Shown here: positions 11,048 to 13,642 of the stretch, piece by piece | Layout of the letters: each line of letters opens with the position of its first letter | Position numbering within the stretch: position 1 is the first letter of the stretch | Source of the DNA: a virus | DNA: 64,000 bases | Reading direction: 5' to 3' (one strand) | IMG/VR virus record: IMGVR_UViG_3300013006_000027 | Location: 14,428 to 78,427 of that record | The notes under the pieces: model-generated | What the model was told of the DNA's origin: nothing | Databases searched by the model: none | The model's input: the letters and a program-made list of their open reading frames with translations, nothing else | Position numbers and translations under genes: made by a program

Positions 11048-13642
11048 ATGCCTATACAAACTGATACTATTAACCGTAGCCTTTATGATTTACTAACCGT
11101 AAGATACGATGATGTAACTCCATTAGATTCCGAAGAAAAAACTACCGCACCTGAAGAAGCCGATATTTTCAGATTTACTTTTGAAAAAGATGGTGAATCA
11201 TATGGTAAGGTATATGTCACCATTGATAATAGTAGAAATCTAGTTCTATATTATGGTGATGAAGTAGAAGATAGTCCCGATACTAATACTTCGGGAACCG
11301 AATTTACTGACAGTTGGTCAGGTTTTAGAAATATGCTTAAGCAGTGGTCACAACGTAAGCAATTAGATTTTGAATTGAAAAATAAAAATCACTTAGCTAA
11401 AGATATGGCTCAAAGAACATATAATAAAGAAAAAGAAAACTTAGGTGAAAGTTATTATCCAATGGGTAAAAGAGGTAGCTATAGCGATGCCGTGCCCAAT
11501 GTTAAGATAATTATTCAACATACTCGCCAAATTGGTGAAGGTGAGCAAAGGTATCGTAATATAGATAAAATATTTGTAGAAAACACAATGGGTGAAAGAT
11601 TTGCTGTGCCAAGCAATAAGCCTGGTATAGCCAAAGTATATGCTAGACATATTGCTGAAGGTGGGTCACCTTATGACGATAGAGGTCGTCATATTACTTC
11701 ACTAGTAGAAGAATATACAAAAATGGCTGGCTTTGTTAGAGCCACTAAAAATAAACAGTTTAATGAATCTACCAATATATTGATACAAGAGGGTGTTAAT
11801 CATTATCAGGCATTAAGAGAAACACTAAGCAGAATGATCGGCCGTCGTGGTTATAATGCATACTTTGAATCATGGCAACCTATCTTAAGTGAAGAAATTA
11901 CAGAAGAAGTTAGTCTTAACGAACTATTTGTTCAAGAAACAATTGATCCTAGAATTGAGTCAGTAATGCCAATTCTTTCTAAATTATATAAAAAGGTAAG
12001 TGAAATGAAAGAAATCAATCAATTAGAAGAGTGGGCTGATAGCATAATAAATGAATACGCAGAAAATGATAATATTGGATATATTCAATTATTACAAAGC
12101 AAATTAAAAGCAGGTAAACCACTGACCTCCCAAGAAAAAGAAAAACTTAAAGCATATCTTGCAGCTAAGAATTTAGGATTAAAAGAAGGTGAAACTTCGT
12201 CCAATCCAATGGGAATTCCTGAATCTGAGCTTGATGAAGGCAAGGGAGCTATAAGAAAGTTCTTAGCTGGTTTAGGAATCGTAGGTGCATTGGGAGCATA
12301 TATTAGTAGTGAAGATGAAGCCATACTACAAAAAATGGCTGTGAAATATGACCAAGCACAGACTTTGGAACAAAAAGCACAAATCAAGCGAGACATTGAA
12401 AGAGTTACCAAAGGTAGTTTAGTCAAAGAAGAAGATTTAGAAGAAAGCGGGTTACAGGCATATCTTGGTAATAAGAAATATGGCAAAGAAGGTATGGATG
12501 CACTACGCAAAGCAGGTCGTGAACATGTTGGTAAGGAAAAAATGGCAGCTATTCGTGCTAAGTATGACAAACTAGATGAAGAAGATATGGCAGAAAGTTC
12601 ACAAAGAGTTGATCGTCTTGTTACTAGAGCGTTAAAAATAATGCGTGGGGGAACAACTGCTGATGCTATAGCAGCATTAAAAACTGTCCTTGGTGAAATG
12701 GAGTATAATGAACGTCCACAATTTTATGATTTCTATATTAGGCAAATGGTTGATATGTACGGCAAGCAAGGTATGGCGGAAGATTTAGATGCTAACCAAA
12801 AGCGTGTAGGACAATTAGGCCCAACCGAAAAGGTAGGACCTAAGGGCGCAGTTGGTAAACTAGTTGGCGCTAGTGAAAGTATTAGAGAAGGTCAAGAAGA
12901 CTTAGATACCATCAAACGATTATTGGGTGAAGGGTTAGCAGGAGAATTTGCAGGTGGCACCCTTGGAGGAGTCGCTGGCAATCTAGCGGGCACCGCAATT
13001 GGCGGACCAATTGGTGGAATTGTCGGAGGCGCAGTAGGTGGTGCCGCCGGCGGAATCGCTGGACGTGAATTAACCAAAGAAGACCAACTTAATGAGTTTG
13101 CCTTTCTTGCACCTGCATTAGCGGCTGGCGCAAGAGCATTATTACCATTATTATCTCGTGCTGGTCCTGCATTAGGCCGTATGGCATCTACCGCAGGAAA
13201 AGCCGGTGCTGAAGTAGCCGGAAAAGCAGCAACTGGAATTGGTAAAGGTGCTGTAGAACTTGGTAAATCAGCAGCGCAGTCAACAGCCCAAAATGCAGGT
13301 AAAGTTGGTTTAGGTGCCGGCATATACTCAATAGCTGATGAGATTGGTAAATCAATTCCTCAAGGCTTGAATAAAGTTTATACAGATGCAACACAAGCCA
13401 CTAGCGCATTAACTAGTATTCTTGGTAATGCACTTGATGGCAAAACTATTGGTGAATTAGGAATGGCAGCCGCTAAATATGCGATACCGTTGGGTATACT
13501 ATTAGCCGCACTATACGGTGGTAAGAAAATAATTGACCAAGTAATGTCTGAAGGGGAAGATGATAGTATTATGGGATCAATCGGTAAAACATTTGAAGGT
13601 CAAGAAGACTTAGATACTATCAAACGATTATTGGGTAAATAA
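11048..13642 (+). CDS. Large modular virion (head) protein with many hydrophobic-x-Glu sites
   Basis: Late promoter GATAAATA at 11032; globular N-half followed by short modules separated by LNE/LKE/LDE/VKE/MAE. Confidence 0.7.
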   Translation: MPIQTDTINRSLYDLLTVRYDDVTPLDSEEKTTAPEEADIFRFTFEKDGESYGKVYVTIDNSRNLVLYYGDEVEDSPDTNTSGTEFTDSWSGFRNMLKQWSQRKQLDFELKNKNHLAKDMAQRTYNKEKENLGESYYPMGKRGSYSDAVPNVKIIIQHTRQIGEGEQRYRNIDKIFVENTMGERFAVPSNKPGIAKVYARHIAEGGSPYDDRGRHITSLVEEYTKMAGFVRATKNKQFNESTNILIQEGVNHYQALRETLSRMIGRRGYNAYFESWQPILSEEITEEVSLNELFVQETIDPRIESVMPILSKLYKKVSEMKEINQLEEWADSIINEYAENDNIGYIQLLQSKLKAGKPLTSQEKEKLKAYLAAKNLGLKEGETSSNPMGIPESELDEGKGAIRKFLAGLGIVGALGAYISSEDEAILQKMAVKYDQAQTLEQKAQIKRDIERVTKGSLVKEEDLEESGLQAYLGNKKYGKEGMDALRKAGREHVGKEKMAAIRAKYDKLDEEDMAESSQRVDRLVTRALKIMRGGTTADAIAALKTVLGEMEYNERPQFYDFYIRQMVDMYGKQGMAEDLDANQKRVGQLGPTEKVGPKGAVGKLVGASESIREGQEDLDTIKRLLGEGLAGEFAGGTLGGVAGNLAGTAIGGPIGGIVGGAVGGAAGGIAGRELTKEDQLNEFAFLAPALAAGARALLPLLSRAGPALGRMASTAGKAGAEVAGKAATGIGKGAVELGKSAAQSTAQNAGKVGLGAGIYSIADEIGKSIPQGLNKVYTDATQATSALTSILGNALDGKTIGELGMAAAKYAIPLGILLAALYGGKKIIDQVMSEGEDDSIMGSIGKTFEGQEDLDTIKRLLGK
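12887..13636 (+). repeat. 42-bp direct repeat pair (12887-12928 and 13595-13636), 41/42 identical, encoding EGQEDLDTIKRLLG
   Basis: Direct sequence comparison. Confidence 0.95.

Follow-up and report, generated by a model that had tools for sequence, protein, structure and literature searches.

A candidate capsid-cargo polyprotein with Glu-ending joints beside the terminase gene of a lake-clade jumbo phage

The window analyzed here is a 64,000-nucleotide (nt) stretch of viral DNA (positions 14,428 to 78,427 of IMG/VR record IMGVR_UViG_3300013006_000027), and the question it raises is what is made by the last gene of its late TerL operon. This open reading frame (ORF), at 11048 to 13642 on the plus strand, encodes an 864-residue protein, P0001. 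Previously, a reading of the letters and translations alone (here, the sequence-only reading) described P0001 as a virion polyprotein in which an N-terminal domain (N-domain) is followed by modules that a prohead protease might release at hydrophobic-x-Glu sites. The ORF and all of the sites listed (10/10) are present at the places given, and the three peptides quoted as released pieces do start at residues 398, 629, and 684 (nt 12239, 12932, and 13097). The record from which the window comes is a 78,427-bp fragment with a CheckV completeness of only 23%, and the window is thus read as jumbo-phage DNA; a RaK2/PA5oct-type jumbo myophage of an uncultured lake clade is the best explanation of the genome that carries it. 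We hold with moderate confidence that P0001 is a prohead-targeted, protease-jointed cargo polyprotein of such a phage, and it would probably fill the head with separable cargo, to be delivered into the host alongside the DNA.

Glu-ending joints and module exchange

The sites in P0001 are IINE (residues 334 to 337), LKE (378 to 380), LDE (395 to 397), VKE (459 to 461), LEE (464 to 466), DMAE (513 to 516), GMAE (575 to 578), IRE (612 to 614), LNE (681 to 683), and MSE (833 to 835), to which LLGE (625 to 628), missed in the sequence-only reading, is added here. An N-domain followed by a string of modules with Glu-ending joints is a conserved architecture among the relatives. An excess of hydrophobic-x-Glu over shuffled sequence had been expected, and it was found for the whole protein, with 30 occurrences of [ILVM]-x-E compared with 17.8 ± 3.5 in shuffles. 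The excess lies mainly in the N-domain (15 versus 7.4). In the modular half (residues 331 to 864) the count was 15 versus 10.4 (p ~0.07), which is not significant and comes close to the shuffle-like frequency that the sequence-only reading had named as telling against it; the raw motif count was therefore set aside as evidence.

The joints were then considered by their behavior among close relatives (80 to 95% identical where aligned), which were compared by BLAST and MAFFT. Whole modules are gained, lost, replaced, and duplicated at the Glu sites, so the proposal that junctions are kept while the modules between them change was borne out. The module borders are ..IINE/Y, ..LKE/G, ..ELDE/G, ..LVKEE/, ..DMAE/, ..G[VM]AE/D, and ..LLGE/G (slashes mark the border). 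Ungapped high-identity high-scoring segment pairs (HSPs) end 0 to 3 residues past [ILVM]-x-E in 41% of cases compared with 12% of random positions, and the last shared residue at breakpoints is Glu in 28% against a background of 9%, the cases behind the 41% and 28% not being independent events. The distance of HSP ends from [ILVM]-x-E has a sharp peak at 0.

The joint that precedes the tail module (described below) was sampled most widely. Across 80 distinct upstream contexts, Glu occupies position P1 in 79, and P3 is V, M, L, I, or F in ∼78 of the 80; P2 is A, E, D, S, G, or T, P1' is D, G, or N, P4 is variable, and P10 to P5 are mutually unrelated. The N-domain/module junction is likewise conserved across 79 distinct contexts. 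Codons at the joint differ synonymously among relatives, which argues that the constraint acts at least partly on the peptide. In T4, gp21 cleaves after L/I-x-E, and an Asp at P1 prevents this processing (PMC9026906). These results support the view that the joints would fit a T4-type prohead-protease specificity.

Whole-chain AlphaFold2 (AF2) prediction of P0001 gave a mean predicted local distance difference test score (pLDDT) of 54.7 and is useful solely for the contrast between linkers and modules. Helical module cores at residues 343 to 375, 399 to 457, 468 to 508, and 515 to 571 have pLDDT values of 65 to 80, and the segments that hold the joints (330 to 341, 376 to 399, 458 to 470, and 509 to 514) fall below 50. 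Such linkers are compatible with cleavage and equally with an uncut multidomain virion protein whose Glu joints serve as short homology connectors for recombination, with no proteolysis. Repeats of 19 to 20 nt (D4 and D6) at joints inside the gene, and a 45-nt repeat that brackets a whole cassette, fit this second explanation as well. A DNA connector, however, is not expected to have the pattern observed, in which the P1 Glu and the hydrophobic P3 are fixed, P2 and P4 are free, and the codons change synonymously; that is the pattern predicted for a T4-type protease site. Moreover, [LIV]-x-E precedes one module, M8, even behind a 9-residue leader, where there is no module to recombine. An uncut chain is thus considered unlikely.

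A hydrophobic cassette, capsid-targeting leaders, and the prohead protease

The cassette bracketed by the 45-nt direct repeat consists of two hydrophobic modules. The repeat copies, at 12887 to 12931 (which encodes EGQEDLDTIKRLLGE) and 13595 to 13639 (both on the plus strand), are identical at 43/45 positions and lie 708 nt apart. Between them are the glycine-zipper module M7 (residues 629 to 683; 12932 to 13096, plus strand), which ends in QLNE, and M8 (residues 684 to 835; 13097 to 13552, plus strand), in which an Ala/Gly/Lys-rich middle is flanked by hydrophobic helices at the two ends (FAFLAPALAAGARALLPLL and KYAIPLGILLAALYGGKK). The 708-nt cassette closes with the tail, here in its second copy. 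Short-form relatives, up to 87% identical to P0001, stop exactly at the first tail copy.

M8 is present in 35 of the 120 relatives listed, and an exhaustive phmmer search with the cassette returned 114 representative clusters. Besides its place in the P0001 family, M8 occurs at other positions within other large proteins and as stand-alone metagenomic (presumably phage) proteins of 150 to 260 residues, in which a T4-like leader is followed by the same site. Examples of these starts are MRASEFIKE-EQQLNE/FAFLP.., MKVNEVVNE-SQQLNE/WAFLLP.., and MLIREIVE..QEINE/WAALLP... The hydrophobic start of M8 is immediately preceded by [LIV]-x-E, mostly QLNE, in 27/27 distinct contexts and by LNE in 16 of these 27. 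This alternation between leader and polyprotein, together with the invariant [LIV]-x-E before the hydrophobic start, is the strongest single argument for M8 as capsid cargo and for its upstream site as a maturation site that bares a hydrophobic N terminus. In M3 and the glycine zipper, too, a hydrophobic stretch begins straight after a joint (ELDE and LLGE, respectively). No family was found for the stand-alone M8 homologues, and an ankyrin match to one M8 homologue (P0203) was rejected as a low-complexity artifact. Overall, M7 plus M8 would be a widespread, uncharacterized phage module, and its leader-bearing form points to an ejected membrane-inserting protein.

The sequence-only reading had described several pieces as membrane active in appearance and as resembling bacteriocins or amphipathic antimicrobial peptides. 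The first part is in keeping with hydrophobic stretches at residues 400 to 420, 646 to 672, 681 to 704, and 801 to 830 (Kyte-Doolittle, 19-residue windows, ≥1.2). The glycine zipper was less secure: GxxxG periodicity is visible, and the match to Pfam PF13488 scored 17.1 bits, below the curated cutoff of 25; among relatives the best score was ∼22 bits, and a subthreshold match was found in 11 of 56. Glycine-zipper bacteriocins exist, and the zipper segment and two strongly hydrophobic helices of P0001 would suit free peptides that kill or permeabilize cells. None of the searches connected the pieces with such peptides, however, and there was no sequence or profile match to a bacteriocin or antimicrobial peptide family. 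In addition, M8, with 152 residues and both ends hydrophobic, is nearer to a small membrane protein than to an amphipathic peptide, and killing a cell that has just been entered would bring the phage no gain. We consider a role as free antimicrobial peptides highly improbable.

Capsid-targeting leaders and a suitable protease are both found in the lineage. In T4 internal proteins, a 10-residue capsid-targeting sequence ends in an L/I-x-E site (PMC9026906). The window contains, at 6859 to 7990 on the plus strand, a tandem array of paralogues (127, 120, and 130 residues) with the leaders MRAHEFITE, MRAREFIAE, and MRATEFIIE; all three end in SPxKPFKGYxR(K). In the complete relative G001, at least five proteins begin with MRAxEF[IV]xE or similar, including one that resembles these paralogues. 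A Peptidase_S77 prohead protease was identified in 3/3 large related records (E ~1e-28), one of which is 359,563 bp long and 100% complete by CheckV. In these three relatives the T4-type head module comprises portal, acidic core protein, S77 protease, gp22-like scaffold, and gp23-type capsid protein. The lineage capsid protein has ..QLLSE directly before its conserved mature start, and IINE occupies residues 13 to 16 of both its scaffold and its acidic core protein.

The C-terminal tail, the N-domain, and the module pool

In nearly all members of the family, the C terminus is an acidic and then amphipathic-basic sequence (..EDLDTIKRLLGK, ..PELIHIKRLSGI, ..DLDAILRIIRK, or ..DLARILNIAGIKK). Lineage scaffold proteins end in ..DNVIDI[KR]RLAGL, and the scaffolds of PA5oct, CBB, and RaK2 have related C-terminal motifs, that of PA5oct being ..ELRRLAGIK. 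Among ∼900 ORFs (the fragment itself and G001), the C-terminal motif ..I/W-[KR]-[KR]-L-x-G.. was found in five proteins only: the scaffold, the P0001 family (one per genome), and a second polyprotein family (two members). The tail is present twice in P0001, a duplication that the sequence-only reading had overlooked along with the second polyprotein. Tail copy 1 (residues 579 to 628, DLDANQKRVGQLGP...GQEDLDTIKRLLGE; 12782 to 12931, plus strand) is the C terminus (LLGK) of the short-form relatives, and tail copy 2 (residues 836 to 864; 13553 to 13639, plus strand) ends in GQEDLDTIKRLLGK. Our inference is that the tail acts as an address for docking in the prohead.

The second polyprotein, at 59677 to 62628 on the plus strand, is a 983-residue ORF that had no Pfam or PHROG match and ends in ..INDWKKLAGLR. 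It has a leader-like N-terminal stretch that ends in ILNE, CxxC motifs, a glycine-zipper segment of its own, and joints such as TVAE, GMAE, and GMEE. The 731-residue counterpart in G001 (220758 to 222953) has the tail motif and has M4 in common with P0001.

The N-domain (residues 1 to 337; 11048 to 12058, plus strand) is conserved and ends in ...WADSIINE, the first junction. Residues 72 to 323 are similar to the virion proteins RaK2 gp423 and PA5oct gp278 (tblastn, 1e-16; 31% identity), and PHROG 13484, a virion structural protein family, matches P0001 at 5.3e-7. Detection of these homologues in virions by mass spectrometry (MS) is an annotation of the PA5oct and RaK2 records, with PA5oct gp278 flagged for electrospray ionization MS/MS (ESI-MS/MS). 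Both RaK2 gp423 and PA5oct gp278 occupy the same TerL-X-SSB-UvsX slot as P0001 (SSB, single-stranded DNA-binding protein). Homology to virion proteins and the shared gene slot make a head location of P0001 likely. The N-domain is retained in more than 1,800 metagenomic relatives (single search; lengths of 493 to 1,171 residues), which align over the first ∼39% of P0001 only or over varied larger portions. AF2 predicted a mixed alpha/beta fold for the N-domain (pLDDT of 75). Foldseek against BFVD matched homologues of it (E of 1e-25), one of them labeled "Large polyvalent protein-associated domain." Foldseek against the PDB gave no match at E ≤ 0.001, and VIA-align against 48,161 chains gave helical-hairpin matches only (Z ≤ 6.2; residues 192 to 276). 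The P0001 N terminus is MPIQTDTINRSLYDLL, with no ∼10-residue leader ending in hydrophobic-x-Glu.

About nine segments follow the N-domain, among them the tail copies, M7, and M8. The first, M1 (residues 338 to 380, Y..LGLKE; 12059 to 12187, plus strand), is helical, is missing from some close relatives, and is doubled in P0024, where the copies (YKQGDD...LGL[KNQ]E) stand in tandem and both end in hydrophobic-x-Glu, indicating an in-frame cassette duplication at a joint. An acidic linker (residues 381 to 397; 12188 to 12238, plus strand) with pLDDT below 50 over residues 376 to 399 ends in ELDE and leads to M3 (residues 398 to 462; 12239 to 12433, plus strand), in which hydrophobic GKGAIRKFLAGLGIVGALGAY directly after ELDE is followed by two helices and a terminal LVKEE; a search for stand-alone M3 returned fragments or internal-start gene calls only. 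M4 (residues 463 to 516, DLEE/SGLQAYLGNKKYGK...LDEEDMAE; 12434 to 12595, plus strand) recurs in another polyprotein of G001, there too straight after V-E-E. M5 (residues 517 to 578; 12596 to 12781, plus strand) is a three-helix unit that ends in QGMAE.

In relatives, the position of M5 is taken by many unrelated modules, including a sigma-70 region-4 domain. This domain (PF04545, 59.6 to 62.6 bits) was found in the close relatives P0012 (L008:681-3530) and P0008 as a single module flanked by two Glu joints, and it may be injected to mimic region 4 of a host sigma factor. Crude clustering of the modules of 70 relatives gave 58 clusters, of which 39 were singletons. Pfam searches of P0001 and 56 relatives matched only the glycine zipper (below threshold) and Sigma70_r4, and searches of P0001 itself against Pfam, PHROGs, and sequence-level domain collections returned only the subthreshold glycine zipper and one virion-protein PHROG.

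Modules also occur outside the family. An 822-residue ORF of G001 (G001:C1:251553-254021) has five QG[VM]AE-type joints and a hydrophobic/glycine module, is without the tail motif, and contains one module 64% identical to a module of P0010. A stand-alone 70-residue ORF (G001:C1:308615-308827) is 51% identical to a module of P0012 and P0015. These matches suggest that several genes draw on a common module pool.

The tail and the module inventory bear on a further explanation, namely, that P0001 is accessory to the scaffold or core, co-assembles with gp22 through its tail, is chopped, and loses most of its pieces from the head, the modules being space-filling or size-determining stuffer. The similarity of the tail to the scaffold C terminus, the lack of a recognizable domain in most modules, and the cutting of T4 gp22, gp67, and gp68 into many fragments, most of which leave the head (PMC9026906), are all in line with this. 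Neutral filler, however, is not expected to turn over as fast as the modules do between near-identical phages, and folded domains such as sigma-70 region 4 (with the bit scores given above) do occur. Likewise, the conserved and widespread M8 carries capsid-targeting leaders when it is a separate gene, and N-domain homologues are kept in mature RaK2 and PA5oct virions according to the record annotation. We therefore regard a stuffer role as rather unlikely.

P0001 starts 23 nt beyond the stop codon of TerL (9477 to 11024; PHROG terminase match, 3e-112), and the gene order is TerL, P0001, gp32-type SSB, and UvsX. A GC-rich hairpin at 13648 to 13679, directly after the P0001 stop codon and before the gp32 promoter, is likely a bidirectional terminator that closes the TerL operon ahead of the promoter of the gp32-type SSB gene. 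A tape-measure identity for P0001 was considered unlikely, since the gene lies within the terminase operon and the tail sheath and tube genes are >30 kb downstream. Antisense ORFs at 12085 to 12570 and 12892 to 13323 were taken to be shadow ORFs of a coding strand rich in Gly/Ala. A gene at 58056 to 58481 (plus strand), which lies within the tail genes immediately ahead of the second polyprotein, encodes a small protein with a TnsA-like endonuclease N-terminal domain (Pfam PF08722, 7.9e-21). As with the HNH gene at 703 to 1989, its product is probably a mobile nuclease.

Proposed mechanism and comparison with known systems

These results suggest a working model for P0001 as a prohead-targeted cargo polyprotein. 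The tail, similar to the final dozen residues of the gp22-like scaffold, would dock the chain in the prohead core as this assembles, and a T4-type S77 prohead protease would then cut the chain after the joint glutamates. Pieces of 4 to 16 kDa would be trapped in the head and would exit with the DNA at infection. In this model, M3, M7, and M8 would gain hydrophobic N termini only once cut, and the polyprotein form would thus hold membrane-inserting cargo in an inert state up to the time when it is enclosed in the capsid. After ejection, M3, M7, and M8 would most likely insert in the host inner membrane, as a conduit for DNA entry or to perturb the membrane, and other modules may be host takeover or antidefense effectors.

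Several observations weigh against this model. In addition to the nonsignificant motif count in the modular half, the joint preference (V or M at P3, often G or D at P4) is somewhat unlike the L/I of T4, and a conserved linker of 4 to 5 residues could persist as a connector for recombination without being cut. The gp21-like protease that the sequence-only reading had proposed to locate elsewhere in the genome was identified as S77 in the complete relatives, but neither it nor the head module is on the 78-kb fragment, itself 23% complete. The similarity between tail and scaffold spans only ∼12 residues, and covariation of the two was uninformative in 11 large relatives, in which scaffold ends are almost invariant (DNVIDIKRLAGL) and family tails vary (KRLLGK, LRIIRK, NIAGIKK, and IMNHRR). 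The RaK2 and PA5oct homologues consist of the N-domain only, with neither modular extension nor tail, and the modular form was found in no cultured phage. From residue 572 on, pLDDT is below 50, which leaves membrane insertion without structural support.

A broader and more speculative proposal, which we consider less likely than not, is that jumbo phages of the lake clade have two interchangeable cargo addresses, an N-terminal leader of the T4 type and a C-terminal tail that is transferable and copies the end of the scaffold protein, with protease-cut joints as universal connectors. Membrane proteins, sigma-70 region 4, and dozens of mini-proteins would then be racked in inert form, freed in the capsid, and injected. 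If the joints are cut, the family (>1,800 members with dozens of unrelated modules) would be a natural plug-in system for changeable capsid cargo and a large untapped reservoir of injected host takeover, antidefense, and membrane entry proteins in uncultured jumbo phages. The model also provides a concrete hypothesis for the safe carriage of membrane-active proteins, which would be masked in a polyprotein until maturation. The T4 capsid-targeting sequence is already used for packaging foreign proteins, and the candidate C-terminal capsid-address peptide and a defined protease linker could both be reused for that purpose in phage heads.

Parts of this design have counterparts in other systems. 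Encapsulin cargo-loading peptides and the C-terminal coat-binding helix of the P22 scaffold are short C-terminal addresses into an HK97-fold shell; the comparison with the proposed role of the ..DLDTIKRLLGK tail is one of analogy only, with no sequence relation. The MuF-anchored polymorphic toxins of temperate phages combine a head-associated N-terminal domain, encoded beside packaging genes, with variable C-terminal payloads. Unlike these, P0001 has many payloads per chain and protease-type joints and belongs to a lytic-type jumbo myophage, and no Pfam match to the Phage_Mu_F domain was found in it at E ≤ 1. Hydrophobic pieces bared by maturation cleavage, if confirmed, would be a parallel to the membrane peptides that nonenveloped animal viruses release on maturation.

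Processing of head-internal proteins after Glu is also found outside the T4 group, and the phiKZ group has the cleavage motif A/S/G-x-E. According to two reports, many head-internal proteins of phiKZ, 201phi2-1, and SPN3US are cut by the prohead protease after Glu and then ejected (PMC5694885, PMC10052503). Unlike P0001, these are separate genes of a different phage group rather than a cassette array, and no homology of P0001 to them was found. A limited literature search found no description of protease-jointed cassette polyproteins or of RaK2-type head-protein processing. Polyvalent proteins are multimodule proteins encoded beside packaging genes that are proposed to travel with the DNA, to act early, and to be processed to domains (Iyer et al. 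2017, PMC5512222). P0001 is similar in having many segments in one polypeptide encoded next to TerL. Its modules, however, are of far smaller size, and the prohead protease, not a built-in peptidase, is proposed to process it in trans at uniform joints. The hallmark polyvalent domains (MuF, ART, zincin-like peptidase, and others) were not detected by Pfam in P0001 or in 56 relatives, although one BFVD homologue of the N-domain has the polyvalent label given above.

The nearest comparisons are with T4 itself, and to offer P0001 as the best candidate for an undescribed system, as the sequence-only reading had done, was an overstatement; it is better seen as varying the internal-protein/gp21 logic of T4 and the polyvalent-protein theme. 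Like the proposed P0001, each of the T4 core proteins gp22, gp67, and gp68 is one precursor with many gp21 cuts after Glu (PMC9026906), but the modules of P0001 are diverse folded or hydrophobic exchangeable units and not a coiled-coil scaffold. Judged from its sequence features, P0001 is closest in its workings to the T4 internal-protein/Alt system. IPI, IPII, IPIII, and Alt are prohead-core cargo, as is proposed for P0001, freed by a T4-type serine prohead protease after hydrophobic-x-Glu, retained in the head, and injected with the DNA, and the T4 internal-protein genes are hypervariable between related phages, as the P0001 modules are. The lineage also has MRAxEFIxE leaders, and M8 is found elsewhere behind such a leader. 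Unlike IPI, IPII, IPIII, and Alt, P0001 has no N-terminal targeting leader, its candidate address being the C-terminal tail, and it concatenates many cargo units, with a predicted cut site at each joint, behind a conserved 337-residue virion domain.

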